Below, piece by piece: positions 7,912-49,800 of a stretch of 64,000 nt of DNA. Every line of letters begins with the position of its first letter. The stretch's first letter is position 1. The DNA comes from Phyllobates terribilis (lineage: Eukaryota), in assembly GCF_046119375.1 (NCBI RefSeq), contig NW_027362763.1, forward strand, positions 782,006,001 through 782,070,000. Reading direction: 5' to 3'. The translations under genes and the position numbers were made by a program. The notes below the pieces were generated by a model. It did not search any database, was not told where the DNA came from, and worked only from the letters and a program-made list of their open reading frames with translations.

Positions 7912-8485
7912 TTGTGAGTGGGGAGCGGGGCTGCGCTGGCTGCAGCGGGCAATGTAGTGCACGGTCCTCCGGTCTCCGGTCCGCTGCATCCATCTGTCAT
8001 CCAGCGGTGGACAACGGCACTACCGCAAGGTATGAAGGCTGCCGCATGACGCGATCGCCCATAGAGCGCCATGTTCTGCCAGCATCCCTGCAGAGCCTCA
8101 TCCCATCATAGATCAGCGCAGCTATTTGGCTGTAAATGGGCCCTGCAACTAGAGGGAGGCTGCTGCTGATGGTGGTGGTGGTGATGATAGTGGAGGAGGG
8201 TTCATGTGATGCAGGGGAGGACTGACCACAGCCTGGTGCTGATGATGGGGGTTGTTGTGATGTTGTGATAAAATGGAGTCTTGTGTTGTAGGTGACATGG
8301 AAATCCTGCAGCAGCCGGAGCATTGCATGTGAGGAGGAGCAGTATACAGTATATACTCCTGCCATGGCTCGTTGCATCCGTGTATTTGTGGCCGGCCGGC
8401 TCCTGCACATCGGCATTCATCCTGGCCTGCAGTAAGGCTCTCTGAAGACGGCTGCCTGCTTCATGCACTTTCCTGGGAGAGCGGA

Positions 8486-8635
8486 CCTTCTCCGGGGCTA
8501 CACCTGCTCCGTTGCCCTTCTCCGGGGCTACACCCGCACCGTCGCCCTTAATCGGGGCTACACCTGCACCATCGCCCTTCTCCAGGGCTACACCCGCACC
8601 GTCACCCTTCTTCGGGGCTACACCCGCACCGTCGC
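8486..8635 (+). repeat. 30-bp minisatellite, 5 copies, in the GPR75 5' leader
   Basis: Unit ccttctccggggctacacccgcaccgtcgc x5, ending 26 nt before the ATG. Confidence 0.92.
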
Positions 8636-8661
8636 CCTCCTGGATCACGTCAGTATTAACC

Positions 8662-10275
8662 ATGAATTTATCAGACAGAATGACAGATTTTGCAGATCAG
8701 ACCAGATATGATTATGTCAACAGCACCTCAGTGTCTCACGTCAGCAACGGGACGCTGAGGGACATCCAGCAGATCATCCACACCGCCACGCTTGTCATCT
8801 GCACCTTCCTGCTGGTCATTATCTTCTGCCTGGGTTCCTACGGGAACTTAGTGGTGTTTTTGTCTTTTTTCGATCCGGCCTTTAGGAAGTTTCGGACAAA
8901 CTTTGACTTCATGATCCTGAACTTGTCCTTCTGCGACCTCTTTATCTGTTGCATCTCTGCTCCCATGTTTGCTTTCGTCTTGTTTTTCGACACCGGCAGT
9001 AATGTTCCTGACGCTTTTTGCTTTACTTTTCATCTCACCAGTTCTGGATTTATTATTATGTCTTTAAAAACGGTCGCCGTGATCGCTCTTCACCGACTGC
9101 GGATGGTCCTGGGGCAGCAGCCCAACCGGACGGCCTCCTTCCCCTGCACTTTAATGCTCACGGTTCTCCTGTGGACCACCAGCTTTACCCTGGCCACATT
9201 GGCTACACTGAGGACACGGAAATCGCGGATCTGCCTGCCTATGTACAGCTTGATTAGCGGAGAGGGGAAAATTATCCTGTATTTGTATGTGATAGATTTT
9301 ACCTTCTGTGTTGCCGTGGTGTCAGCCTCGTACATCATGATTGCCCAGGCATTGAGAAAAAATGCCCAGGTGAGGAAGTGTCCTATCATCACGGTGGACA
9401 CTACCAGACCTCAACCCTTCATCACCCCCGGAGTGGATGGGGTACAGTGTGCCGTCCCTGCTTTATACAGGAACCAGAACTACAATAAACTTCAGCACGT
9501 CCAGACGCACGCCTACACAAAAAAACTGAGCCAAATGCCCGTGCCGGCCAGCAGACTACAGCTGGTGTCGGCTGTCAACCTGTCCACCGCCAAGGACTCC
9601 AAAGCCGTGGTGACGTGTGTGGTCATTGTATTATCTGTCCTCATCTGCTGCCTGCCGCTGGGCATTTCTTTGGTCCAAGATGTGTTGACGAACAGCAGCA
9701 GCTTCATCCTGTACCAGTTTGAGCTTTGTGGGTTCACACTGATCTTTTTGAAGTCGGGATTGAACCCATTCATCTACTCCCGTAACAGCGCCGGCTTGAG
9801 GAGGAGGGTGCTGTGGTGCATCCAGTACGTCGCCCTTGGCTTTCTATGCTGCAAACAAAAAACAAGACTGCGAGCTATGGGCAAAGGCAGCTTGGAGGTG
9901 AACCGAAATAAGTCCTCTCACCATGAAACCAACTCTGCTTATATGTTGTCGCCAAAACCCCAAAAAAAGTTTGTGGACCAAGCGTGCGGCCCAAGCCATT
10001 CAAAAGACAGTATCCTGAGCCCTAAGGGATCAGGGGGGCACCAGCACTATGCCCAAAGCAGTTCTACTCCCATCAATACCCGCATAGAGCCCTACTATAG
10101 CATCTATAACAGTAGCCCCTCCCAAGAAATAAGTACCCCCAACAGCCTGCAACCCGTCAACTCCACCTTCGGATTTGCCAAATCCTATATTGCCATGCAT
10201 TATCACACCACAAATGACTTAATGCAAGAGTGTGAGACCACTTCTGCCAAGCAGATCCCCGTGCCATCTGTCTGA
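8662..10275 (+). CDS. GPR75: G protein-coupled receptor 75 (class A 7TM), 537 aa, single coding exon
   Basis: [13 protein letters not shown]...[44 protein letters not shown] and C-terminal AKQIPVPSV match vertebrate GPR75. The ORF-track start at 8512 is a TTG; the first in-frame ATG (AACCATGA) is at 8662. Confidence 0.97.
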
Positions 10276-19477: not shown

Positions 19478-20845
19478 GCGTTTTGCTGTCAGACCTGAAA
19501 CTGGTGCATTAGGTCCTGGGTTTTCCCTAGTGCAGGTCAATGTTCAGACTCACGAGGCCAGAGGGGGTAGGCAGCTTCTGGACGACACAGGTATTGATGT
19601 AATTGACTTTCTCCTGTTCCCCAGACAAAAATCCAATTGAGAATCTCTGACATTATGTATCGGTGTATCCAACAAGGTCAAGTAGCCCACCGACGGGCTG
19701 GGAGGAGATCCCATAGGACACAGGCAACATCTCATCAGGTGACACAAGTTGCTGTGGTGAAATGCCCGTGATTCCAATTTTTTTACTTTGGTTTTTGGGT
19801 TGATTTGGAATCCAGCCTCTGTTGGTTGATGATTTGGTTTCCATTTACTATTTTGTCTTTTTTTTTTTTTTCCAATAGATTTCTCACAATTTATATCAGT
19901 AAAATTTTCAACTTGAATCTTTTGTTCCTCACAATGAGATATGTGATTTGAAAACATTCTCCGGGAACAGAGAAAAATAAATTAATAAATGTCATTATAC
20001 CGTATATAAATTACTAAATACTTTTATTTGGCAAGTCACCATTGCTTGGTCTGGGGAGATCATCAAGATAGAATTAAAATGGCTGCTGTCTTGTTACACC
20101 GCCAGTGCTGGAGATGGAGAGGGTGAATACTATCTTTCTTACTTTACAGTATACAAATTGTTTGGGTTCCACTTTTCTAAAAGTGGAAAACCCCTTTAAT
20201 ATAGTAAATTGTGTTTTTGGCTGAGCTTGTATGTACTTTGTCTTTATATTTTAAGGAGACGGGTAACTTCTCTTTTAAATAGCTAAATCGGACCCCTTTT
20301 GTTTATATATAGTCTTTCAGAGAGGAGGTTGGCTTAAAGAGTATCTATTACTAAAAATGTAATTGTATTAAAAAGGAGATTTTTGTGTACTCACCGTAAA
20401 ATCTCTTTCTCTTAGCTGCTAATTGGGGGACACAGGACCATGGGTGTTATGCTGCTGTCCACTAGGAGGCGACACTATGCATAACCTGAAAAAGATTAAC
20501 TGTGGCTCCTCCTCTGCAGTATACACCCCCGGACGGCATCAGCCTTCTCCAGTTTTGTGCAAAAGCATTAGGAGGAAAGTAACATGGATAACATACCATG
20601 CCTATAAGAAGGCAACTATGTACGAACTCAAGAAAAAACAATATGAGAACTCAACATAACAGCCCGGAACGGGCGACTGGGTGGGAGCTGTGTCCCCCAA
20701 TTAGAGGCTAAGAGAAAGAGATTTTACGGTGAGTACACAAAAATCTCCTTTACTCTGTCGGCTCATTGGGGGACACAGGACCATGGGAAGTCCCAAAGCA
20801 GTCCCTGGGTGGGAAGCAATGGACGAATATTGTGTAGACGGGCCC

Positions 20846-21900
20846 CTACAATTGGGGTATCGCCGCCTGCAGAACACGTCTACCCAGGCTCGCGTCTGCT
20901 GAGGACTGGGTATGAACCCTGTAGTGTTTGGTAAACGTGTGTAGGCTAGTCCAGGTGGCTGCCTTACACACTTGTTGTGCCGAAGCCTGGTGCCGAATGG
21001 CCCAGGAGGCCCCTACCACACGTGTAGAGTGTGCCGTAATACCTGCTGGAATAGGAGAATTTTTGAGGCGGTAGGCCTCTTGTATGGTGGATTTGATCCA
21101 CCTGGCAAGGGTAGCTTTGGAAGCTGGCTGGCCCTTGCGGCCGCCTTCCGGAAGAAGGAAAAGAGAATCAGACTTCCGGAAGGGCGCAGTCCTAGACACA
21201 GATACGCAATGCCCTGACAAGGTCAAGCATATGCAGAGCCTTCTCCACTCTATGAACCGGGACCGGACAGAGGGATGGCAGTGAAATTTCCTCATTGAGG
21301 TGGAAGTTGGACACAACCTTCGGAAGGAAGGATGGGACCGTACGGAGAACTACCTTGTCCTGGTAAAAAGCCAGGAAGGGCCGTCTGCAGGAGAGTGCTG
21401 TCAGTTCAGACACCCTGCGTAGCGAGGTGATTTAGACCAGCAAAACCGCTTTCTTGGATAGAAGGCGGAGTGGGACTTCCCTAAGGGGTTCAAAGGGTGT
21501 TTTCCTGCAATGCTGTCAGCACCAGGTTGAGGTCCCACGTTTCTAGTGGTCGTCTGTAGGGGGGAACCAATCGGGAAACCCCTTGAAGAAATGTCTTTAC
21601 TTGCGTCTTGTTAGCAATGCACCTCTGAAAAAGCACTGAGAGAGCTGACACCTGGCTCTTAAGGGAGGCCAGGGACAGTCTGGCCTCCAGACCCGATTGG
21701 AGAAACCCAAGTACCCTGGGGAGGGAATAAGGGAATGGGGTCTGGCCGCGAGATTCGCACCAGGTAAAGAAGGCTTTCCAGGTACGGTAATAAATCTTAG
21801 CAGAGGTTGGCTTCCGTGCCCTGATCATGGTTCCAATGACGTCTGGCGAGAACCCCGACTGGGTTAGAACCCAGGTCTCAATGGCCACGCCGTCAAATTG
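20846..21900 (-). pseudogene. DIRS-A tyrosine recombinase, disrupted
   Basis: AHSTRVVGASWA and TFTKHY in ORF 20846-21316; LRTVPSFLPKVVSNFH in 21192-21413; WDLNLVL at the end of 21490-22995; pieces are in different frames. Confidence 0.85.
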
Positions 21901-21920
21901 AGGGCCCCTGAGTTCTGGTG

Positions 21921-23662
21921 TTAGAACGGGCTTTGTGACAGAAGATCCGGGCGGTCGGGGAGACGCCAGGGGACGTCTGCTGTGAGCTGTACGATGTCGG
22001 CGTACCATGTACATCTGGGCCAGTCCGGTGCGATTAGGATGGCTGGAACTCCCTCTCGCTTGATCTTCCTCACCACTCTGGATATCAAGGGGAGAGGTGG
22101 AAAAATGTACAGGAGCTGGAACTGGGTCCAGTCCTGAACCAGGGCGTCCGCTCCTAGTGCCCGCGGGTCGTGAGTTCTGGTCATGAAGTTGGAGACCTTG
22201 GCATTGAAGTGGGATGCCATTAGGTCTATGTCCGGAGTCCCCCAGCGATGGCAGATCTGTCGAAAAACTTCGGGATGGAGAGACCACTCTCCCGAGTCCA
22301 TTCCTTGCCAGCTGAGGAAGTCTGCTTCCCAGTTGTCCACACCCGGAATGTGGACCGCAGAGAGAACCAAACCTGTGTCTTCCGCCCAGTGGAGAATGCG
22401 AGAAGTGACACATATCGCCTGGGCACTGCGGGTCCCCCCTTGGTGATTCACATATGCCACAGCCGTGGCATTGTCCGACTGTACTCTGATGTGAGAGGCT
22501 GCCAGTAAGTGATGGAAGGCTCTCAATGCCAGGAGGATGGCACGAATTTCCAAGATGTTGATGGGCATGGTCGCTTCCGCTGGGGACCACTTGCCCTGTG
22601 CTCGGTGGTGTAGGTGTACCGCACCCCAACCCGTCAGGCTTGCGTCGGTGGTCAGAACCTTCCATTGACCCGTGAGAAAGGATTTCCCCTTTGTTAGTGA
22701 GGTTGGCTTGAGCCACCAGTGCAGGGACCTCCTGGTTGACGATGTCAGCTGGAATTCCCTGTCGAGAGGAAAAAGGGTTCCTGTCCCATGACTTGAGGAT
22801 GGCTAGTTGGAGAGGCCTGAGGTGAAGCTGGGCAAATGGGACCGCTTCTATTTCCGCCACCATCCTGCCGAGGACTCTCATTGCAAACCGGAGAGATCGA
22901 TGGGGTTTGTTGAGAAGAGTGCGAACTCCTAGGCGGAGAGGCAGTGCCTTGTCCTTGGGAAGGAGCACTAGACCCCTGAAGGTGTTGAATAGCATTCCCA
23001 GGAAGGTCAGAGACTGACTCGGGGTTGGCGATGACTTTTGTAGGTTGACTAACCAACCCAGGCGACTTAGTGTCGATTGTGATTGAGACGCAGTCCTTGA
23101 AGGTGGGAGCCTTGATAAGGAGATCGTCCAGATATGGAACGACTACTATGCCTCTGGAGTACAGGACGTCCATGGTGGCTGCCATGACTTTGGTAAACAC
23201 TCTGGGAGCCGTGGCGAGTCCGAGCGGGAGAGCCACGAACTGGTAGTGGTCCTGGTCGATTGCGAACCTGAGAAATCTCTGATGGGTGGGTGCAATTGGT
23301 ATATGCAGGTATGCGTCTTGTATGTCTATGGAGGCGAGAAATTCTCCCTTTTCCATGGACGCAATGATGGGCCGAAGGGACTCCATGCGGAAGTGACGTA
23401 CCCGTACATATTTATTGAGCTGTTTTAGGTCCAGTATGGGCCGTACGCCGCCTCTTTTCTTGGGGACTACGAATAAATTGGAGTAGAACCCTCGGAAGCG
23501 CTCGGCCGCGGGGACCGGTACTATGACTCCTGCTTGAAGAAGTGAGAAGACCGCTTGGCGGAAGACACAAGCCTTGTCTGGCGGTTTTGGGGGAACAGAA
23601 AGTCTGGTGGGTTTGAAGTGAACTCTGTCTTGTATACCGAAGACACTCGTTCCCTGACCCAC
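21921..23662 (-). pseudogene. DIRS-A RT/RNase H/methyltransferase-like pol, frameshifted
   Basis: IDIQDAYLHIPI, LPLGLATAPRVFTK, PYLDD (22745-23662); SDNATAVAYVNHQGGTRS, DLMAS and YIFPP (21921-22568). Confidence 0.88.
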
Positions 23663-23746
23663 CTGTCTTCTGTAATAAACAGCCAGACTTGATGAAAGAG
23701 CAAAAGTCGGCCGCCTACAGGTGGGGTGTCTTCCGGAGTCCGTGAG

Positions 23747-25333
23747 TCATGATGAGGAGGAAGTCTGAGATTTTCCTCCTTTAAACTTTGACTGGCTTGC
23801 CTTTGACTGCCAGGTCTTGTCCGACTTTTGCGTCGACCGCGAGTTGTCCCTGCGTAGGGAGCGGTTGCTATTTTGTGCTGGCCGCGAGACGGACCAGCCC
23901 GAAGAGTTCTGAAAGGATCGGAATCGAGTTTGGTTACGCTTCTTGTAAGTGCATTTGGGTTTCAGTTGGGGGAGAGAGGTACTCTTACCCCCGGTGGCGT
24001 TGGATATCATCGTGTCCAACTGTTCACCAAAAAGTCGACCACCGAGGTACGGGAGGTGGGTGAGGGACTTCTTTGAGGTTGCGTCTGCCTTCCATTCCCA
24101 CAGCCAGAGGATACGCTGAATCGTGATGGCGTTTGATGCTATCCCCGCTGCACCCCTTGCAGAATCCAGAGCTGCATGAAGCATGTAATCTGCTATGACT
24201 GCTATTTGAACCGCTTGGTCCGACAGCTCAGGGGCTGATACTTGGAGGCCAGCTTGTAAATTTTGGGCCCAAGCCAGGATGGCCTTGGCAGCCCAAACTG
24301 AAGCGAACGCGGGAGCCAGGGAGGCCTCTGCAGCCTCGAAAATTGAACGAGCCATGCGTTCTACCTGCCGGTCTGCTGTGTTCCTGAGGGTTGAGCTATC
24401 TGGCAGTGAAAGGAGGGACTGTGCTGCTAGCCTACAGACTGGGGGATCCACTTCGGGTGGATCTGTCCATTCCTTGGTGGTCTCCTGTGGGAAGGGGTAC
24501 CGCGCCTCCAGATATTTGCGATTGGTAAACTTCTTCTCAGGCTGTGAGAACTGCTTTTTAAGGATCGACTTAAACTCTGGGTGGTCAAAGAAGACCTTAG
24601 GCGGCTTCAGAACTCCTTCAAAGGAAATCTTGTGTTGTGGTGCCTCCGGGGGCGGATCAGAAATGTCCAGCACCCGATGGATGGACGAGATTACGTTCTC
24701 AACTAGCGCTGTATTGCTAGGGGGGATTGGGATCAGGGACCCTTCAGTTTCCTTGTCTGAGTCGGAATCACAGATGCCTTCCGAATCCTGTGTATCGCTA
24801 AGGCGGCTCCTGCTGGGTGAACCAGGGTGGAGGCCTTCTCTGGTCGGGGATCGCTGCGGAGAACTGCAATATCTGTCCCTGGTAGGGGACGGCCTAGATG
24901 ACCTGGAACTACAGTGTCTCTCCCTAGAAGGGGATGACCGTGTGCTATGGGATGACGCAGATGAACGTGACCTGTGGGTCCGCTTGCGTCCTGACCTAGA
25001 CGTGGATGTGCCCGGGTCGTCATGTCCCTGAGTCGAGCCTTTCCTTTGCTGGGTAGCGTTCATAGCCGAGGCATGACTCTGCAGAGCCTGGAGCAGTGTG
25101 GAGGTTAGGTTATCTATAGACTGCGTCATTGATTGCGACATCTGAGTGACCCACTCCGGCGTGGCATTAGACACCGAAGCATTGGCAGGGGCTTCTTGGG
25201 GCTCTGGCACAGTAGTATGGATGCAGTCCTGGCAGTGCGGATACGTGCTGCCTCTTGGGAGAGTATTGCTGCAGGCTGTACAGAGTGCATAATAGCAGTC
25301 CTGCCTGGTTCTCTTGGACCTTGAGCCCGGCAT
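23747..25333 (-). CDS. DIRS-A gag-like ORF1, 528 aa, uninterrupted
   Basis: N-terminal CxxC...CxxC (CTAC...CQDC), Ser/Arg-rich linker, DPPVCRL...DRQVERMARSIFE, RLFGEQLDTMI typical of vertebrate DIRS ORF1. Confidence 0.85.
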   Translation of the reverse strand: MPGSRSKRTRQDCYYALCTACSNTLPRGSTYPHCQDCIHTTVPEPQEAPANASVSNATPEWVTQMSQSMTQSIDNLTSTLLQALQSHASAMNATQQRKGSTQGHDDPGTSTSRSGRKRTHRSRSSASSHSTRSSPSRERHCSSRSSRPSPTRDRYCSSPQRSPTREGLHPGSPSRSRLSDTQDSEGICDSDSDKETEGSLIPIPPSNTALVENVISSIHRVLDISDPPPEAPQHKISFEGVLKPPKVFFDHPEFKSILKKQFSQPEKKFTNRKYLEARYPFPQETTKEWTDPPEVDPPVCRLAAQSLLSLPDSSTLRNTADRQVERMARSIFEAAEASLAPAFASVWAAKAILAWAQNLQAGLQVSAPELSDQAVQIAVIADYMLHAALDSARGAAGIASNAITIQRILWLWEWKADATSKKSLTHLPYLGGRLFGEQLDTMISNATGGKSTSLPQLKPKCTYKKRNQTRFRSFQNSSGWSVSRPAQNSNRSLRRDNSRSTQKSDKTWQSKASQSKFKGGKSQTSSSS

Positions 25334-27987
25334 AGTGCACTGGGGTGGCTATGCAGAGGGGCCTACAGGGGTGGTGTATAAGGAATAATGGACTCACAGC
25401 CGAGGAAGAACTCCAGCTGTGATCTTATCCCACCAGTGTGCCCCTAGGTCCAGCGCTGAAGATCCACAGTCCTGTGCCCCCCTTGGAGACCAGCTGGTCT
25501 TCCCTTATCCTGCAGCAGATAATGGCCGCCGGAGTAAAGTTAAGAAAGAAGGGGGGCGGAGAGTTGAAAAGGGCATTAGAACTGTGAAATCGCGCCCTTT
25601 CAGTCTCGATCCGCCCCCTCTATGACACTGTAGAGTGTCATATTTGTCATCCGGGGGGCGGGCCGGGGAGAGGAGGTGGCGGCTTCGGCCTAAATTAGAT
25701 GCCTGATGCCCAAAGGGACTGCAGGCCAGCGCGGAAGTCCGGATATGAACCGGACCCCCCCGGATTTAAAGGCAGGATAGCGGTGGGGTATAAGCGGAAG
25801 GGGGGGCTCTGTAAAGAGTCCCCCTGAGGCACCGTAGAGCTGGTGCTGCCGCAGAAACAGGGCGCAGGGAGGCCTGTGTCTCTGTTGTGTTTTGGCTGCA
25901 CTCCCCCCGGCCCCGCCAGGAGCCCGCAGCAGGGCTGGGGTCCCTGGATTCAGCCGTAGTGTGCTGGCTGCTGGGAGCTGCTGCCTGTACAGGCCCTACC
26001 TGAGGCGTTTCAACCTAATACCCCCAGGGGGGGGATTAGGGAAGTGCTGTTGTCACCATCAGGGGGCTATATCCTCGCCTCGACCTCAACCCAGAAACCA
26101 AAAGGAATTGGGGAAGGAGGGGGTCTCGACTTCGAACCAGCACCCGAGGGTCTGGGGAAGGAGCGACATGGGGAATAGCCATCTCGACTTCAACCGTGCA
26201 CCCCATAATAAGGGGCCGAGGAAGGAGCCATGCCGGGAGTCTCGCAGTAGATCCACTTTTCTTCATCTATAACCCGGTCGATGAAAACGGAGTAAGAGTT
26301 TTAGGTGTGCCTCCTATGCGACACTAAGCAAAAACTGGAGAAGGCTGATGCTGTCCAGGGGTGTATACTGCAGAGGAGGAGCCACAGTTAATCTTTTTCA
26401 GATTATGCATAGTGTCGCCTCCTAGTGGACAGCAGCATAACACCCATGGCCCTGTGTCCCCCAATGAGGCGACAGAGTAAATGTAATTATATGTGTTTAT
26501 TTATTTTAGATGCTAACTGCTTTGAATGTCATTATCTAAAAACATTTTGTTTTATGTTTCCTATTTTTTAATCGAAGTGCGCTATCATCTGGTGGAAAGC
26601 GCGTCTTTTCACTGATCCCTCTGCACGTCGCATGCTTCTAATGGGCAGGCAGAGAGCCCGGAAGAGCGCTGCTCCCAGGGACATAGTGCTGCTTTATTAG
26701 AAGAATGTTCACTGCACACCTGCAGCTTCACTATCTACCATTGTCACACTGATCTGTGATCTGATAGGAGTAAGAACGCTCCGATCACAGCAAAGACCAA
26801 TGTAATGGTGATAGATAATGAAGCTGCTGACAGGCAGGGACGAGTGTGATAATATACTCATCGCTGCGGGAGTGGCCATGACCGATCTTCTAATAATGAA
26901 GTGGTGTCCCTGGTAGGAACACTCCTGGTAAGACTTGCCGGACTCTGCACACTATGTAGAGACTCCGTGATAACTTGTGAGATTGCTCTTTTTAGTGGGA
27001 AAAGAGACCAGAAAGTGTTATCATATGCGCAGTTCCTGGGGTCATCGCTCCATTGCCCTTCACCAGCAGTAATTATATTATTACCGATTTCCCTGATGCT
27101 TCCCTATGTCACTATCACACTGGTCTTTGCTGTGATCAGAGCGTTTCCACTCCAATCAGAGCACAGACCAGTATGACAATGATAAATAGTGAAGCTGAGG
27201 AGCGGCAAGAAAAATTCTTCTAATAAAGCAGCAGTTTATCCCCCCGATGCAGCGCACACTCACTGCACAAAACTGAACATGGAATCTGCTCAGATCAGAT
27301 ACGTCACTTCCATGTTGTGGAGTGATTTAGTGCCAAAAGGTATTTTGGGAAATGGTGGCAACTTTTTACTGATAGTCGTACTAGCATATCATTTAAAATC
27401 TTCTCTCATAGTATTAACAGTCCCTTCCTTAATGATTTTTTCAATTATATTTAGAATGTGGTCTTTATTTTTTATTATAAAAATCACTGTTTTAATCAGA
27501 AGAACATGATTACTAGAGGACTAGTAAACCTGCTATCATGTAGTTCTCCATATTCATGAGCTCTGTATAACCCTGTCCTCACCACTGATTGGCAGTGTTC
27601 TGCCTATGCACAGTGTATATAGAAAGCTGCCAATCACAGGTGTGGGTGGAGTTATAAAGAGCTCAGCATTCAGAGAACTGCTAGATCTGCAGATGATAAA
27701 ACAGGGATTTTATAAAAAATGAAGAAAGCAGCCCATTGACACATCGTTGGAATCAGGGTTTCTGCCCCCACATTATTCTGCTCTGAGATGGAGTAGCAAA
27801 AACCTGGTGACAGATTCCCTTTAACGCGGACAAACCTGGAAACAAGGAGCACAATTTATCTTGAAGAAACATTGCTGACTGGCCCTTGGGTAACCATAAT
27901 ATTTTTTTTAAGTGCACAATTAATTTACTATACGCCAACTGTGGAAATTCCCAACCTGTAATAGAATGCATGGTTATTATGTGGAGA

Positions 27988-37800: not shown

Positions 37801-40800
37801 AGTGTGTTAAAGTGGTATTCCCATCTCCAAGATCCTATCCCAATATGTAGTAGGTGTAATAATAATTATATTAGCAAACATCTTCAATTAGAAATGTAGT
37901 ATAGTATTTTTGATTCGCTACGCCACTTACCTCATGTGCAGACAATACAGGACCTTAGGTATCCATGGTTACGTCCACTGATAAAGTGACAGTTAGCTGC
38001 TAGTGGTCGTAACCGTGGATACCTAAGGTCCTGCAATGCCCTGCACATACAGATAAGTATAATTTTTAGTTTATAGAAAAGTGCAATAGAATGTGTTTAA
38101 CTACACAGAGAGCCACTCCAAAAAAGTGGCCACCATACAGGATATTTTTCTTCTTACACGTGAAGTATCGGAGTCTTCTGACAGGTATCAGAAAATCTTC
38201 ACGGCATAAATCTCCTACAAAGATAATTGAACACAGAGCCCTAAATGTAATAAAATCTATGCCTACCCCAATACTACATTGTTAACAAACCTGTGTCAGA
38301 TGAGCTTTTTTTCACCATGTTCCCGAGGAAATACTCTTGCATATTAGTTTGCTAAAAAAAATAAAAAAATTTAAATCTATGAATAAACTTTACTTAAAGA
38401 AAATATCATCGCTTAGCACAAAGGAGCGATTTTGCTCCTCTGATCGCCCATTAAATAGACAGATTATATATATCTAATAGATAACTAACTTTGTGTGATG
38501 TCCTCTCATATTGTTACAAGAGGGTGGCAGGTGAAGTGACCGAAAAACAACAATTCTGACATTTTGATTTTTTTTTTCATGCCGTTTACCATATGGGTTA
38601 ATTCATTTTATATTTTCATAGATCTAAGAATTAAGGATGCAGCAGTCCCAAATATGTTTGTTTTTTTTCTTTATTTTCAGATTGGGAAAAGGAGATCATT
38701 CAAACTTGAGTCTTTTAATATGTTTGAAAACTTTTCTAATTACTTTTCCCTACATTGGGAAAGAGTCACTCTGCCTTCCCAGCGCCTGTGCACAAGTTCC
38801 CTGCGCACTACACTGACGGCAGGGAGAAGAGCGCCGTCCGTACAGAGGAAACAGCGCAGGCGCAGGATCCGGCCGGGAACTGCACGTCACAGGGCCCTGT
38901 GCAGGGGAGGTGGGGTGAGTATGGAAATAGGGCTAGAAGGCGGGCACTTCTTGGCGTCCGGGGAACGCGAACCTTTGCTTTTTTATTAAATTATTTCTGC
39001 TATTTCACAACAACCAGACCTCTAATATGGGCCATACAGGCATGTATAGATTCACATTTCTATAACCTGTATGCCCATATTAGCGGTCTGGAAAGTCCCA
39101 GGGGGTGACAGATTCCCTTTAAATAGAGATGTTCTGATTAAAGGGTTATTCTCAAGTTGTCTCTTGAGCAGCACACAGCTTTCCAGTCTCCTCACTTCCT
39201 GGTTTATGGCAGGGCGGTCTCTCCTCCTTGAGTGACAGTTCTGGCGAGGAGCAGAGCTGTAGTATTAGTAGAACAATAAATAAAGCTCAGCGCAAGTTCT
39301 TCTATAACACATTCAGCTTTCAGTGGTTGTTCTGGGTCTATACTATTATCACTATTTCTACGTATAGGGATCACAAGGCATTTGGGGGACGTTAGACTGG
39401 ACTGAAAAGATCCTAGTTACTTACCGGTAACGGGATTTTACAGAGCCCATGACAGCACCACCTGAGAGAGGGTATCCGCCCACCAAGGACAGGAACCTAC
39501 TGAATAAAAAGGCGGTACCTCTCCTCCGCATCAGTTTTGTTTCAGAGCATGAGAGTGACTCCGAAGACAGGTTAATACATAACCACCACCTCAACATTTG
39601 TACTAAACACCTTAAAAAGTGCACACCACAGTGATAAAGGGGAGGGAATTAATAGGGTGCTGTCATGGGCTCTGTAAAATCCCGTTACCGGTAAGTAACT
39701 AGGATCTTTTCCCCTTCTCCCATGACAGCACCACCTGAGAGATTTATAGAGATCAAATACCAGAGGGAGGGATCACCGCTTGCAACACCCTTCTACCAAA
39801 GGACAGATCAGAAGAGGAAAGGTCAAGACGGTAATGTTTGTAAAATGTAGCGGGGGATGACCAAGCGCCTTACATATGATGTCGATGGGCACATCCGCCT
39901 TCTCAGCCCAGGAAGCAGCTACCGCTCTGGTGGAATGGGCCTTCAGGTTCTCAGGAACCGGCAGATTGCTAGAAGAGTAGGCTAAGGTAATAATATCCCT
40001 GACCCATCTAGCTATGGTCCCCCTTGTAACCTTAAGTCCTTTCCTAGCCCCCTGAAAGGATATAAATAAAGCGTCACTCTTTCTCCAGGCTTTTGTCACT
40101 TCCAAATACTGGACTAACACCCTCCTAACATCTAAGGTGTGAAGCTTATATTCCTCAGAATCCCTAGGATTAGGATAGAAGGAAGGGAGAGTGATTACTT
40201 GCGTCCTATGGAACTTGGAGGCTACCTTTGGAAGATAGGCCGGGTCTGGTCTTAAGATTACTCTATCCATACATACTTGAGTGAATGGATGGTTAACGGA
40301 TAGTGCGTGTAAGTCACTGACTCTACGAGCTGATGTCAGGGCCACCAATAGCGCAGTCTTTAAAGTTAAGATTTGCTCTGAAACCTTCTCTAAGGGCTCG
40401 AAGGGAGGTTTGGTTAATGCTTCCAGAACTAAATTAAAGTCCCAAGGAGGCATTCTTGGAACAGGAATAGGTCTGGATCTATGACAGGCTTTAATAAATC
40501 TAATGATCCATCTATTTGCTGCCAAGTCATAATTATACAGTGCCCCCAGAGCTGATACCTGTACCTTAATAGTACTGGTGGCTAGTCCCATGTTTAACCC
40601 CTTCTGGAGGAATTCTAGTATGGCCTCAATAGGAATCCTCCCTTTGGCGGACTGACCCGAGGTAGACAAGAACTTAGCCCAGGTTCTACCATAGATTCTA
40701 GTTGTTATCAGTTTTCTACTTGCTAGAAGGGTAGTAACAAGATCCGGAGAAAACCCCCTTTGCGTCAATAGCGACCTCTCAAAATCCAAGCTGTCAAATG

Positions 40801-43800
40801 CAGGCCCGCTCTTTGGGGATGACAGACTGGGCCCTGCCTGAGGAGATCCGGAAGAACCCATGGATCTGCTTGGGACATTCTCTTCATCCAAGTGAACCAT
40901 GGTCTCTTGGGCCAGAACGGGGCGATCAATATAACCCTCGCCCGTTCCTCTCGGATCTTCCTCAGGATAGTAGGGATCAGTACTAAAGGGGGAAAGGCAT
41001 AAGCTAGAGTGAAATCCCATGGAATCTGCAGCGCGTCCACCGCAAACGCCCCCTCTTTTGGATTCAGGGAGCAAAAGGTTTCGGTCTTCCGATTGTGTCT
41101 GTTTGCAAATAGATCTATCTGGGGCTGTCCCCACCGATCCACAATATGCTGAAAAACGGCTGGATTCAACTCCCACTCTCCTTGTTTCAGGATGTGACGA
41201 CTCAAGAAATCGGCCTTTATGTTCTCTTCCCCTTTTATATGCAGTGCCGAGAGCATAACCAGCCGACTCTCGGCAAACCTGAAGATCTGATCCGCTATTA
41301 GCATCAGAGGGAGAGACCTGGTACCCCCCTGACGATTGATGTAGGCGACTGTTGATCTGTTGTCTGACATTATCCTGACGTGAGGACCCTGAAGAACAGA
41401 ACTGAATTCTTTTAGAGCGTTTCTGGCTGCCAACAGCTCTTTCATGTTGGAAGAGAGACTTGTCTCGCTGTCCGACCAGAGGCCTTGAACAGAACGATCC
41501 CTTAGGTGAGCTCCCCAACCTTCCGCACTTGCGTCTGTTGTAATTGTATCCGACACCTGGGAGGTCCAAGGAACCCCCAAAGATAGGTTGACCGGAGATG
41601 TCCACCAGTCCAGGGAGTTGATCACGACACCTGGAAGAGATATTTTCCCATTCAGGCGACCTTTGAGCCGCCTGTCCGCTGCCAGAATCTCCTGTTGAAG
41701 ACATCTGGAATGGTGCTGGGCCCACTGAACCGCCGGGATGCAAGATGTCATTGTACCCAACAGAGACATTGCACTCCTCAGGGTCATGGACGGATTGCTG
41801 ACAACCTGAGATATTAGGGATCTGATCTTCAGCTTCTTTTCCTCTGGCAGAAGACAGGTTTGGTTTTCTGAGTCCAGAATGAGACCCAGGAAAGACTGAA
41901 CCCTCTTTGGTTCCAGCCTTGACTTCTCCAGATTTAACAGCCAACCTAGGCGTCTTAGACTGGCCATGACGTCCGCCAGGGCTAGAGCACAGAGTTGACT
42001 TGATCTGCCCACTACTAAGAAGTCGTCCAGATAAGGGATGACCAGAATATCTCTTTCCCTCAAGTGCGCCGTGACCTCCAGAATAATTTTTGTGAAGACT
42101 CTCGGCGCCATGGAAATGCCAAAGGGAAGAGCTGCGAACTGAAAATGCCTTACGTGCCGGCCGAATTGTACAGCTACTCTTAGAAACTGTTGATGATCTG
42201 GCAAAATCGGGACGTGGTAGTAGGCGTCCTTCAGATCGAGGACGCACATAAAACAGTCCGGAAATGACATCTTTATGGCCGATTTTATTGTTTCCATCTT
42301 GAACGGCCTGTAGATTAAATGGTCGTTCAGCCTCTTTAAGTTCGCAATGGTCCTGAAGGAGCCGTCCGGCTTCTTTATTAGAAAGAGAGTCGAATAGAAT
42401 CCTCTTCCTTGCTCGGGTGCAGGTGTTTCCACCAGAACTCCTTTCATGAGCAGAGAGAGAACTTCCTGCTGTAAGGCTATCTGTTCCGCTAAACCTCTGG
42501 GGGCTGATATTTTGACAGTGTTCTTGGGCCTGCTTTTGAACTCTAATGTGAGCCCCCTCCTGATTATCCCTAAGATCCAAGAATTGGATGAAATTTCCTT
42601 CCAGGCATGCAGGAAGTGGGACAATCTTCCTCCCACCTGGGGGGAACTGTCACTTAGGGGCTTTCTTATTCTCGGAGGAGGGACCCCCGAATATGAAGCC
42701 TCTGTTATACGGCTTTCGGTCTTTCCAGTTACCTTGGTCTCTGGGAGCTTTACTGCGGCTGTATTTTCTCTTCCGAAAGGAACTGTTAAATCGGGAACCA
42801 GACACCGTGGGAAATCCATGTTTTTTGTCTGCGGCTTTATCTAGGATGTCATCTAGACCTTTGCCGAACAAGAAGTCCCCCTCACAAGGGATTGAGCACA
42901 GTTTAGACTTTGACTGCACATCTCCTGGCCAGCTCTTGAGCCATAGCGCCCTACGGGCTGCATTAGAGAGGTTTGCAGACCGGGCAGCCAGCCTAACTGA
43001 ATCTGCCGATGCATCTGCCAGGAATGCAGCCGCTCCCTGCACAAGAGGAAGGTCTGATAGAATTTTCTCCCTGGACACATTCCCCCTGATCTGGTCTTCC
43101 AATTGTTGAAGCCAGATCATCATAGATCTAGCTGTGCAGGTCGCTGCTACTGCCGGTTTAAGGGCCCCTGCTGACGACTCCCAGGCTTGTTTAAGGAAGG
43201 ACTCCGCTTTTTTATCCAGCGGGTCTTTTAAGGCTCCTAAATCCTCAAAGGGCAGAGTGGATTTTTTTGAAGATTTTGAAATGGCCACGTCAATCTTAGG
43301 GGTTTTGTCCCATTTAGCCGCATCCTCATCCTCAAAGGGGTACCTCCGCTTGGAGGATGACGGCAGCTGACCCTTCCTCTCCGGTTTCTTCCATTCCCTT
43401 TCTATCAGAGATTTAATCCTGTCATTGACCGGGAATGAGCGTCTCCTCCTTTGGTCTAAGCCCCCGAACATAACATCCTGGACTGTTCTGGGCACCTTGG
43501 TATCGGTAATACCCATAGTCCCTCTGACGGCTTTAACTAGTTTCTCAGTATTATCAACCGAAAAACAAGGTCTGCCCCCCCATCATCATCCGAAGACTCC
43601 AATGACGATGAGGAGTGATTAGAGGAGGAAGGCAGTTCTCTCGTAAAACGGGACTCCACTGATTCCTTTGATTCTGAAGAAACTAGTTTTCGCTTCTTCT
43701 TTTTGAGTGAGGTTAAGCCTCTTAAAGACTCTCTGACCTCTGTCTGGATTAGATCCTTTAATTCTAAAGAAAACCTGGGGGACTCCTCTGCAATGGTTTT

Positions 43801-46800
43801 CTGAATACAGTCCGAGCAAAGGTTTTTGGCATAGGAGGTGGGAAGACCGATTTTGCATAAAGCACACTCCCTGTTTTTACTTTTAGCACTACACTTCTTC
43901 GCCTCCTGCCCCAAGAAATGAAAGGAGAAGAAGGAGGAAAAGAGAGAGAGAGAAGAGCACATTATTCAGGGTGAGACTTTCACGAAGATCACTCACCACA
44001 CTGCCGTTCAGACTAGGGTACCGGAGGCGGTGGTTGCCGTCCACATGAGGGCTCCCATCTGGCGGAGGTGGACTGACGAAGTCTTTTCTGACCAGTCTTG
44101 CCGGAACTTGTACGCCCTCCACTGCTGTGACTTTGTCGATGGGAAGATTCTCGTTCCATTTGTTTAAGCTGCTTGCGCTGCTTTGATGGCTGTGGCTGCT
44201 GCTGTACTTCCTGTAGCGGTGACAGCTGCTGCCCAGGTGACTGCGGCTCCTCATCCTTCATGGAGGGGATGCAGACACCGCCATCCTGATTGCTCCCCAT
44301 CCTTAAAAAGCAGTAGGGCTCCACCTCCTTTAGCCTCCTCCCCTTCCGGCAGCGTGCTCATTTCAATCTCTTTTTTTTTTTTTTGAATTTTAGCCAGCTG
44401 GCGCGCTACCCGCATATCCACTCGCTTCTGCGCGTGAACAGCCCAGCGGCACCCGGCGCGCTTGCAGCGGGATGACAGCTTCCCACCCGCGCATGCGCAG
44501 ACCCGGCTTCCGGCGCACTCCGTGATAGAGCGCGTCAGCACCCCGCACTTCCGGCGCGCTCCGTCACAGGGTGCGACGCGACCCCCACGTGCGCAGCCAG
44601 GAAGACCTGCAGGCCGGCGCGCTCAGTTCGTCTTTGCGAGGCGCAGACACGGCCGCAGGCCACGGCGCACGCGGGGAGGAATCCAAAAAAGCAGCACCTC
44701 CTCCCCAGACCCGGGCAGCAGCCAGACGGGCTGGGAACAGGAACCATCTGCTGCTTCCACGGCCTCCAGGCCGCACCGTCCATAATCCAGGTACGTGAGG
44801 TACCACCTGGTGAGGCTCCCATCAGGGACAGGAACCAAAAACTGATGCGGAGGAGAGGTACCGCCTTTTTATTCAGTAGGTTCCTGTCCTTGGTGGGCGG
44901 ATACCCTCAGGTGGTGCTGTCATGGGAGAAGGGGAAAATAACAGCTTGTCAGGAGCAGAGAGGGAGGGTGATGGAAATGAGCAGTTGCATATAAATCATG
45001 GAATGGAGAAAGCTGACTGGTATGTTAGGAATTAACTCCTCTCCTAGATAGTAGCTACTGGGCAGAACTGGTGGCCGAGACCCACGGAAACCAGCTGTAC
45101 ACCATGTAAGATAAAGCTCTCACAGCAGGAGAATGGCAGCAGGTAGAAAAAGAATGTCAATTGCAAACTTACTTATTTTCATGCTGTCTAACTAATTAAA
45201 GCAATTAACTTGATAATACTCATTTAATTAGTATATGTCCAATTTTGTGTGATGTGCTCTCCTGAAATGTCTCATACTATCTGTACAAAGAGGAAAAACA
45301 AAAAAAAATGTGTTTGTGAGAAGTCTGTATAATGAAGAAAAAAAATGTAAATAAATTAGAAAGGTTTTGTTTTGTTTAGACAAAGAATAGGGTTATAAGA
45401 ATTCTAATAACTAAGGAAGCAAAAGTTGGTGTGCTTAAAAGCTGCGATAAATGTATATGTACACGAATATAATGCTATGTGCTTATTAATGAGAAGAAAA
45501 ATATAAAATTTCATTAGTTGGTGTTATGATACTGGCACATTGGAGGAGAGCATTTTATAATTATTCTACTATGAAAATTGCGGACATACCATTAAAGGGG
45601 GAATTAAATGGAATAATGAGGGACAATAGTTTTTATAGTGAAAACCTATGTTTTAAATAATGTACAAATAATTTTATCTCCAAAAGTAACGAGAACATTA
45701 AAACATTTATAAATATATAGTGAATACAAAACCCTGGGAGAAATACAATGGATGTAAAACAATAGGACTATTAAATTGTAGAACACTGGGTAAAACGGTC
45801 ACCGAGAATGATTGGGGTGTATGGGTGGATGACCAGTGTCAGGCAGCTGCTGCCAAAGCAAATAAAATAGTATCTATGCCTCTTTTAATGCATCCCATTC
45901 ATAGCAAGAACTTAGTTTTACTAATCAAGTCACTAGTGCGGCCACACTTCGAATACCGTGTACAATTTTACTCTCCGGTGTATAAGACGGACTAAGCTGA
46001 ACTACAGCGGGTAGCAGAGAAGAGCGACCAAGGTCATTAAGGGAATCGGTGGACTGTGATAATAAGACAGGTCATCAAACTTGGGGTGACGCAGTTTGGA
46101 AAAATGAAGGCTATGGGGCGATCTTATTAAAGTGTGCAAATATACGAGGGGACAGTAGAGAGATCTTTCTGATGAGCTTTTTACACCTACACAAGTTACA
46201 AGGGAGCATCTGCTAAGTCTAGAGGAAAGAAGGTTTAATCATAATAATGATAGATGATTCTTTACTGTAAGAGCAGTGAGACTATGGAACTCTTTGCCAC
46301 ATGATGTTGTAATGGTTGATTCACTAAAAAGGTCAAGGAGGGCCTGGATGCCTTTCTTGAAAAATGTAATATTTAACACTAGAGGTGTGCGGGTCCTAAT
46401 TGTTTCTTTTTTGACTCTCTAAGGGCTTGTGCATATGACCGTAAAAATCGGATGAGTGCTATCCGTCATTTTGATGGATAGTACTCATTCCCATGTTATC
46501 CTATGGGGCCGTGCACATGTCCAATTTTTTTCTTGGAACGTGTAGGTCTGAGAGATTTTTTTTTTCTTCTCCATATCCGAGAAAATAGGATCACAGTCTG
46601 ATCAGCATAATCGGACAGATTTTCTCAGATGAGAAAAAACGGTTGAGTGACTCTAGCCTAGTGTGGGACAATTAGCTATCTGCCTCATGGGTTTTTTTTT
46701 TTTCTCTGAATCAACATGCTAGGCCGGAGTCACACTAGCGAATCACATCCGATGCGAGAGTCTCGGATACAATATGCTAATGACACTTGGCTCCTGCTCT

Positions 46801-49800
46801 GCTGTGTGTGAGCCAAGTGTCAGTGCTCCGTGCTCTCACATGAAATAATCGCAGCACAACTGTGGAGGGGATGGGGAAAGTAATTTCTCCATCACCTCTG
46901 TTACTGGGTGTCGGCGGGAAGAATCGCACTGCACTTGGGTGATATCCGAGTGCAGTGCAATGTTTCACACGCACCCATAGGCTTATAGGGGTGCATGCGA
47001 TCCGATTTGTGTATGCAATCGCAGCATGCTGCGATTGTTTTTACATGCCGAATCAGCATGAGAAAATAATGTGAACTGCACCATAGAGTAACATTGGGGC
47101 AAATACAATCCAATTTTTTTATCGGATTGCACTCGTCCGATTGCATCGCAAGTGAGAGCGAGCACTTAGGCAATAAATTGAACTCTATAGAGTTATGTCC
47201 ACTTTCAACCTTAAAATCTATGAAGAAAAATCATAGACGGCACTCCGTTTCTGTCCTGCATGGACCTTCATCAGATAAATGCTGTGATGTTGTAATTGAG
47301 AGTGAGTATGTGATACAATAGGCGGTGAGAAATGAACGGACTGTGTCAGCTGATCAGCTATAGGATGTCTGCACTATAGTATAGTATCAGAAGGCACTAG
47401 TACTTTAGTGCAGACATCCTATACCTGATCAGCTGACACAGTCCGTGCACTTCTCACCGCCTATTGTATCACATAGTCACTCTCCATTACAACATCACAG
47501 CATTTATCTGATGAAGGCCCATGCGGGACCCAAACGTCATTAACTAGTTGTTTCTTCAGACTGATCTATTGTACATAGAAATCTGAACTGTGGTTTCAGG
47601 AATGAAAATTAAGAGATTTTTGGTACCAACCGCCATATCTTTGCGAGACACAAGAAAGTTGAGCGGATGGTTTCTACATGTGTGGTGCCCACTGTGAAGC
47701 ATGGGAGGAGGTGTGATGGTGCTTTCCTGGTGACATGGTCAGTGATTTTATTCCAAATTCAAGGCACACTTGCCCAGCATGGCTACTACAGTATTCTGTA
47801 ATGACATGCTATTCCATCTAACTTGGACTTAGTGGGACTATCATTTGTGTTCTAACAGGACAATGGCCCAAAACAAACCTTTGGGCTGTGTGAGGGCTGT
47901 GTGAGGGCTGTGTGAGGGCTGTGTGAGGGCTGTGTGAGGGCTGTGTGAGGGCTGTGTGAGGACTGTGTGAGGACTGTGTGAGGACTGTGTGAGGACTGTG
48001 TGAGGACTGTGTGAGGACTGTGTGAGGACTGTGTGAGGACTGTGTGAGGACGCAATGCTGTGTCAGATGACATGGCCTCCTCACTCACCCGCCCTCAACC
48101 CAACTGAGATGGTTTGGGATAAGTTCAACAGCAGAGTGAAGACAAGGCAGTCAGCAAGTGCTCAGCACTTCCGGGAACGCCTTCAAGGCTTTTGGAACCA
48201 TTCCAGGTGATGACCTCATGAAGCTGATTGAAAGAACACCAAGGTGGCGTTAAGTGGTCATCAGAGTAAAATATGGGTACTTTGAATAATCCTAAAGGTT
48301 CAACACATATTTTGGTTTATTTTGCACTTGTTCCTTTACTCCTTGTTTCCATATATGTTCCTTCGTGGTTTTGCTGTCTTCAGTCTGAATCTACAATGTG
48401 CACACTCCAATAAGGACAAGGAAAACCATTGCATGAACAGGGATGTCCACACTTGACAGGTACTGTATAAATTCTTCCTGCTTGCTGTCACCCAATGGGA
48501 AGCAGTTTTCTTCCAGAGGACTAACCCTTGCCCTGTGGAGGACACACAGGTGTACGGCCCGCTCCACTTACGGTATAGTTATCAGAGCGCTCTCATTAGA
48601 AGCTGCGTACCTGGACAGACCCCAACACCATGACACGTGGCCTATTTTTGTTTTTTTAACGTTTTTACATTTCCCTAAACATTACATGTTAGTAGTAAAG
48701 ACGGAGATACAGCCAAAATCCGGGATGAGGAGCATCATGGTAAACTACTATGCCCCATGCAGGCAGATAAGACCTAAAGCGAACTTACATCCCATAAGTA
48801 GAGTGTAGACCAGCCCTGATCCATCCACAATGCACATACCTGCCCGGCTTCTTTCTCCTCATGGTACTGCCGGATGTGTTTTCCATGGCACACCTCGTAT
48901 GTCCAGTACGACTCGATCTAAAACATTGTAAAGGAACAATGAGTCGAGGAAGATTCTCTTGTTCAATCTGACCATTTATGAGTAAATGCAAGTTACCCTG
49001 TATGAACAGCTGGTTTGCTTGAAGAGAGGATCTAAAAGTTCTCCAGGAGATGGTCCCTTATATTCACCTCCTTCTTCCTGAAAATAACAATGACGATTGC
49101 TTAATACCAGATGAAATACTTCTACAGTGACAATACCATGATCCCTGAAGTAGGAGTCAGAAGATTTCCTACCATATTTGATTGGCTGTACATCGAGGTC
49201 ATTTTGCCCTTTTCACAAATCAAAACTAAAACATAGAAAAATATCACCGGCATATTGATGACTTCTGACAGCAGATCCTCTACAGAAAGCGATGAGGTAC
49301 AAAGCTGCCTCATACGGAGCCTTAAAGGGGGTTGCCTGCTTGGCACAACCTCTTTCCATAAGCCCTGTTAGGACACGAGGACGTGTCCGGTTCTATCAGC
49401 ACATCTAAACGTATCACCCCTAATGCATGCCATACAGTTGTATACACTGACCGTTAAAGAGGTTGTCCATTTTTGTGGTCAGTTTACTTTTACACAAAAT
49501 ACACTTATTTAGAGCTAAAAATATTTTTTGCAATTGGGTTTCATTAACAATTTTGCACCGTTTACCTTAACTGAGTTAACTTAGAATCCATCAGTGAGCT
49601 CGGGTTGACAAGAGAGAGTTTGTAACACTTATCTGTTTTTATTTTACCAAGTTCCTCTCAGCTGACTTATGACCATAGACCACATCAAAGATAAAATGGG
49701 CAGGGGGTAAAAAAAAAAAAAAAAAAAGAGCCTGTAAAAGCCAAACTGTGCAAAATTGTTAATGAAACCTAATTGCATAAGTGGTTTTTTTTTTTAGTCC

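Follow-up and report, generated by a model that had tools for sequence, protein, structure and literature searches.

The gag gene of a DIRS1-like retrotransposon in the frog Phyllobates terribilis is split by an intron of 116 nt (44021-43906, minus strand), and a small share of the genomic copies lack precisely this segment. Coordinates refer to the window, i.e. the whole 64,000-nucleotide stretch of DNA that was analysed. Splicing very likely creates the message for full-length Gag, with unspliced RNA serving as the main template for copying. The exact junction, the repeated independent loss of the intron, the selection on the joined reading frame and the presence of the same layout in other families were all observed, the junction being recorded in genomic copies of the spliced form rather than in transcript reads across it.

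The element and its surroundings

Judged by its sequence, the 5.5-kb element at approximately 44938-39405 on the minus strand is a young DIRS1-like tyrosine-recombinase retrotransposon. It is full length (39405-44938), with the same termini as other copies that have differing flanks. A DNA search of the 10.6-Gb host genome with the element gave 741 candidates, and the 40 of these that were scored had identities of 97-100 %. Inverted terminal repeats are present, as is an internal complementary region, as is usual for DIRS1-like elements. In the left terminal repeat (44838-44938) a 71-nt arm at 44838-44908 is 100 % complementary to 39468-39538, and in the internal complementary region with the right terminal repeat (39404-39740) the 56 nt at 39404-39459 are 100 % complementary to 39656-39711. 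Pfam matches were obtained to LAP2alpha (PF11560, E 8.8e-21) in the gag-like ORF1, to RVT_1 (E 1.5e-15) and RT_RNaseH (E 8.4e-6) in the overlapping pol ORF (40765-42840, minus strand), and to Phage_integrase (E 4.1e-7), the tyrosine recombinase (YR) in the last third of ORF3 (39773-42649, minus strand), which overlaps pol. A general Pfam scan of the pol ORF gave no match at E 0.1 to a methyltransferase-like domain after RNase H. ORF3 abuts the gag TGA in the same frame (TGA-CAG, 42652-42647), lacks an early ATG and, in several copies, stays open over some 970 codons; it may be expressed by read-through or by an additional splice.

Gag is encoded by two exons on the minus strand. Exon 1 (44022-44361) has in the family 113 codons from the ATG at 44361, and exon 2 (42650-43905) has 418 codons in intact copies, with a zinc-finger motif (CxxC...CxxC) at about 43866-43807 followed by the LAP2alpha domain. 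The gag model is thus corrected by an extra exon of 113 codons, and full-length Gag has 531 amino acids, not the approximately 504 given in a preliminary description of this DNA. The copy in the window is itself damaged: exon 1 has a frameshift within a T-run (near 44309), which leaves 93 codons from an ATG at 44300, and exon 2 has one within a short G-run near 43582, already noticed in the preliminary description and confirmed in the sequence. The closest database protein is P0001 (98 %), which its source assigns to a poison frog.

The element sits on the same strand within an intron of a host gene (28770-48920, minus strand; exons near 48917, 36964, 35094, 32321, 30158 and 28946), which resembles ERLEC1, and because of this orientation the host transcript could make use of the splice sites of the element. 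A second, distant DIRS element lies at 20372-26468 on the minus strand. Its 528-aa gag is uninterrupted, only 24 % identical to that of the first element and free of any such intron, and acceptor-like sequences just before its ATG at 25333 hint at an intron in the 5' UTR. The window also holds a 7-transmembrane-like ORF in a single exon (8446-10275, plus strand), preceded by an in-frame 30-nt tandem repeat and presumably resembling GPR75.

Genomic copies without the intron

Copies with long open frames were collected by a search with the exon-2 protein, and among 30 loci inspected two, L035 and L036, lacked exactly 44021-43906. Exact pattern searches of the genome then gave 14 copies with this junction and 375 with the matching unspliced boundary, the latter including older subfamilies, so that the intron is retained in about 96 % of the counted copies and the leak is about 4 %. 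In a separate set of 30 copies, selected by the exon-1 protein alone, two were without the intron, and L232 is a fifteenth young intronless copy which the exact junction pattern missed. All 14 copies have lost the identical GT-AG segment of 116 nt. The left terminus is present in 14/14 and the right terminus in 13/14, and the flanks are distinct in all of them. In five the gag frame is intact over 541-546 codons, of which 531 follow from the ATG; another copy has a longer open frame that ends at the gag stop. The ends GT...AG and the pyrimidine tract are those of U2-type spliceosomal introns, and base-exact intronless copies (14 against 375 intron-bearing) bear out the earlier proposal of a spliceosomal intron within a retrotransposon gag. 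In four copies of an older subfamily, approximately 80 % identical, the same donor is joined to that subfamily's own, different acceptor sequence.

Loss of the same 116 nt could in principle also result from a deletion hotspot, where template switching or repair would remove the segment. Such deletions do occur in these elements and can spread, as seen from a 123-nt deletion in gag (43589-43467), with short homology at its ends, that is common to the intronless sister copies L080 and L085. Among 53 full-length copies, 39 of which are intron-bearing and were chosen by the donor-1 pattern, so that their donor-1 conservation is by construction, 21 other deletions of at least 40 nt were found. Their ends were scattered, with one deletion common to two sister copies. 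Apart from the gag intron, nothing deleted in these 53 copies had GT-AG ends, and a spliced-out pol is accordingly not supported there. At the 44021/43906 join there is microhomology of only 2 nt, the ends are GT and AG, the phase is 0 and the frame is restored, and the older-subfamily copies use another acceptor sequence.

The number of events was estimated from a tree of 34 copies, i.e. the 14 intronless ones and 20 of the hundreds of intron-bearing ones, from which the intron columns had been removed. The intronless state required 12 changes on this tree (shuffled mean 10.9), at least eight of them forced by strong branches, and a single intronless clade was rejected (p-AU 1.6e-18). The intronless set is thus polyphyletic, which suggests that spliced RNA has been copied back repeatedly. 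At least eight, and probably 12, independent and identical events make a deletion hotspot extremely improbable. As the identical GT-AG loss has recurred with just 2 nt of homology, reverse transcription of spliced RNA is the best explanation, and we infer by established retrocopy logic that the intronless copies derive from spliced, genome-length RNA.

The route into the genome could differ, however. Resident copies might have been converted by spliced cDNA instead of new copies being inserted, and the full termini and distinct flanks suit either route. We found no direct evidence for gene conversion, and it would still need splicing at donor 1; we regard it as unlikely. Only two sister pairs occur among the 14 intronless copies of the tree. 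L080 and L085 share their 123-nt deletion in gag, and the defective intronless element behind them seems to have been copied in trans.

The donor used and the coding frame of Gag

In unspliced RNA the frame from the ATG at 44361 runs into a TAG at 44013-44015, and a phase-0 GT at 44021 lies shortly before this stop. This GT belongs to donor 1 (CCG/GTACCC, 44016-44024), a weak but used site in which CGGTA is invariant in 11 aligned introns. Database models support the same joint: P0001 and P0068 are identical over both exons to L225 and L214, two loci that bear the intron, and are joined at donor 1, although the evidence used by the annotators is not visible, and P0069 starts instead at an ATG inside the intron. 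Between the young and the old subfamily the donor-1 frame has 12 synonymous and nine non-synonymous differences, with 16 of 26 changes at third positions. An 86-codon frame that leads to a second donor (donor 2) has two synonymous and 20 non-synonymous differences. By this comparison, coding selection acts on the frame joined at donor 1 and not on the 86-codon frame.

Donor 2 (43965-43999) consists of GTG/GTGAGT at 43996 followed by a conserved motif that could form a small hairpin, and GTRAGTG is kept in 11/11 aligned introns. The preliminary description had taken it for the splice site in use, joining the 86-codon frame from the ATG at 44254 to exon 2 by removal of 91 nt. The donor sequence is indeed present and near consensus, its GTRAGT is kept across families, and the frame is open in the window copy and in 30/30 of the closest, young copies. 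Intronless copies do exist in the genome, but none carries the 43996 junction (14 carry that of 44021), against 409 unspliced boundaries at this donor. In 21 copies the sequence departs at the first two bases of donor 2; each of them keeps the intron and has either point changes or a deletion of 3 nt at this place, and in none of these 21 candidates was donor 2 joined to any acceptor, the method registering only RNA that was copied back. Moreover, the 86-codon frame is without coding constraint, 19 of 22 older-subfamily copies have no ATG in it, and in 27 of the 49 distant loci described below a stop follows within nine codons of donor 2. As a source of Gag the 43996 donor is therefore largely refuted, and we consider it highly improbable. 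Eight of the genomic copies examined (L205-L212, 429.8-430.8 Mb) are near-identical, share the same GT-to-GC change in donor 2 and lie about 100 kb apart; they make up a tandem segmental array and do not stand for eight insertions.

The other parts of the intron were largely described correctly. The acceptor (GGGGCAG/GAG, at 43906) holds, whereas the length does not, as the segment removed is the 116 nt from 44021. The pyrimidine tract with its variable (CT)n and the acceptor CAG (43906-43957) are kept in 30/30 of the closest copies and are thus a family-wide feature, not a copy-specific microsatellite. The stretch free of AG before the acceptor is real, but it begins at 43976, with AGs at 43993 and 43978. 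The ATG at 43962 inside the intron is also present; as a start for in-frame translation of unspliced RNA it fails in 9/30 copies, in which it is out of frame. Read-through of the intron in the 86-codon frame was considered and rejected: this frame is open only where the length of (CT)n permits, e.g. in L044, L047, L049 and L052, and in several distant families it is interrupted by an acceptor whose TAG is in frame. In two copies, L034 and L121, the tract has grown into long simple repeats; the intron of L121 is 405 nt long, and the acceptor of L034 has been replaced.

Contigs from six of eight sequencing runs, none of the eight being recorded as RNA, were also viewed. They crossed the intron unspliced, one of them over 4570 nt, and none of the joints listed for these six runs was at either donor. 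As contigs drop rare variants and the runs may not be RNA, this tells neither for nor against splicing.

Conservation in other DIRS families

A distant set of 60 loci of the same genome was selected only by exon-2 protein segments of two other frog proteins. These loci fall into eight families at 75 % identity and are 34-46 % identical to the gag segment of the window. The two-donor layout could be parsed in 49 of the 60: a phase-0 AG that precedes the zinc-finger motif by 9-14 codons, a donor of the form GTRAGT, and a weaker donor (xG/GTA) 23-31 nt before the GTRAGT. In six of the 49 the acceptor was called wrongly. Of the 11 remaining loci four were without donor 1, three without donor 2, two without a phase-0 AG and two without a zinc-finger match. 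No intronless copy was found among the 60. In 37/49 parsed loci donor 1 shares its frame with an ATG at least 40 codons upstream, as donor 2 does in 6/49, and the donor-1 frame meets a stop inside the intron in 48/49. Going by these alignments, the weak donor, the strong GTRAGT, the pyrimidine tract and the phase-0 AG before the zinc finger recur in eight other DIRS families of the genome, in which the use of donor 1 is suggested by frame and conservation. Both donors are nearly invariant across the 11 aligned introns and the spacer between them is variable. One T upstream of the pyrimidine tract is invariant in the same alignment. Protein models from other frog species have a low-complexity N-terminus, often ending in proline, followed by the same basic stretch and zinc finger; as proteins, these would fit a shared intron.

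A possible mechanism

Spliced RNA would be the message for full-length Gag, and unspliced RNA would yield only a 115-aa exon-1 peptide that stops in the intron, in which case Gag production depends on splicing. Because nearly all counted copies keep the intron, unspliced RNA is probably the usual template for copying; the earlier suggestion that copying proceeds mostly through unspliced RNA agrees with the counts of 375 and 14. It had also been suggested that regulated splicing separates gag mRNA from genomic RNA. A division of labour of this kind is plausible, but what was copied from spliced RNA had genome length and could integrate, so this RNA was not gag-only, and regulation would be a further step. 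The loss of an intron is one-way, and a leak of a few percent would therefore erase it over time unless intron-bearing copies were favoured as parents.

The most likely form of control is that the strong, conserved and apparently unused donor 23-31 nt downstream competes with the weak donor 1 for U1 snRNP: donor 2 would bind U1 and damp splicing at donor 1. Splicing would then stay partial, leaving enough unspliced RNA to carry the intron into new copies, and donor 2 may in addition belong to a packaging signal. We tentatively propose a clade-wide two-donor switch in frog DIRS gag, in which the weak donor gives the Gag message and the strong decoy donor with a stem-loop keeps most RNA unspliced and marks it as genome. 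If true, such a switch would let the elements keep the intron across tens of percent divergence despite a steady intronless leak. Folding of the whole region over donor 2 gave z values from -1.29 to +1.13 (11 sequences), and the local donor-2 hairpin beat 95 % of shuffles in 4 of 13 sequences. Donor 2 was more paired than donor 1 in 11/13. None of eight pairs of the hairpin had a compensatory change, with 73.5 % of cells paired in an alignment whose window row is shifted by one column. A hairpin over donor 2 is possible, with neither covariation nor stability speaking for it.

Splicing could also be real and unregulated, the intron persisting because it contains an element that acts in cis in packaging or in reverse transcription, or because it shields copies from intron-sensing silencing, and intronless copies being poor parents. 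Between subfamilies, conservation is higher in the intron's 5' half (45/47 sites, 12 of them set by the search pattern) than in exon 1 (193/224) or exon 2 (230/298), and the scarcity of sister pairs among the intronless copies points the same way. In human cells HUSH represses intronless elements (PMC8770142); its extension to frog DIRS would be by analogy. Against this reading, the two sister pairs suggest that intronless copies can be parents, in a tree that held 20 of hundreds of intron-bearing copies, and no covariation indicates a structure. We consider unregulated splicing possible but less likely than not, and compatible with splicing for Gag and copying through unspliced RNA rather than exclusive of it.

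Comparison with known systems

Little work has been done on gene expression in vertebrate DIRS elements, and few retroelements retain introns in sense orientation. In the present case splicing at one base has left many records in the genome itself, and the leak rate can be read from it. For an abundant class of transposable elements the gag model gains an exon, and intron-bearing copies with their intronless counterparts form natural pairs in which ideas on packaging, U1 decoys and intron-based silencing could be examined.

The element resembles the anuran DIRS1-like elements DIRS_XT/XL of Xenopus, which have three overlapping ORFs (gag with LAP2alpha, RT/RH and YR), terminal repeats that are inverted, and an internal complementary region (PMC9210276). 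ORF1 is treated there as a single ORF, and the strings 'intron' and 'splic' are absent from the main text. In the literature searched, with founding papers, Repbase and supplements outside its scope, no publication was found that describes a native intron in the gag of DIRS1-like elements. Older papers on YR elements reportedly mention introns in some elements. The word 'intron' is absent from the text of PMC9210276, PMC3266345, PMC3783388, PMC6681497, PMC4157794 and PMC4495291; the 'intron' passages available from PMC7192593 (12 of 22) deal with an engineered marker, and the accessible parts of PMC5890265, PMC5718144, PMC9341512 and PMC12477816 hold nothing relevant to a DIRS gag intron.

Penelope-like elements likewise keep spliceosomal introns through retrotransposition, which PMC8557442 terms highly unusual. 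They belong to another order with another integration chemistry, and their introns characterised there overlie an internal promoter within the 5' UTR. In the plant Ty1/Copia elements, Arabidopsis EVD (PMC5580714) and barley BARE1 (PMC3735527), one element makes a spliced RNA for Gag and an unspliced RNA for copying, roles that in frog DIRS are probable. U1 snRNP is described as involved in the control of EVD (PMC5580714). In Copia the splice is around the protease domain and gives a short Gag-only RNA (PMC5580714, PMC3735527). In the frog DIRS elements, by contrast, the intron is close to the 5' end of gag, the gag frame is put together by splicing, and the copied form of the spliced RNA has the length of the genome. 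Its copies run through pol and YR to the right terminus (13/14), so that early termination of the Copia type was not encountered, although a short isoform could still exist.

Retroviruses have their packaging signal directly downstream of the major splice donor, and by analogy donor-proximal intronic sequence could mark unspliced DIRS RNA as genome. The frog elements differ from retroviruses in having no envelope gene, and a role of the intron in packaging is putative. Gag splicing was already known from Copia; this analysis adds evidence from genomic copies that is exact to the base, corrects the donor and describes a two-donor layout that is conserved.
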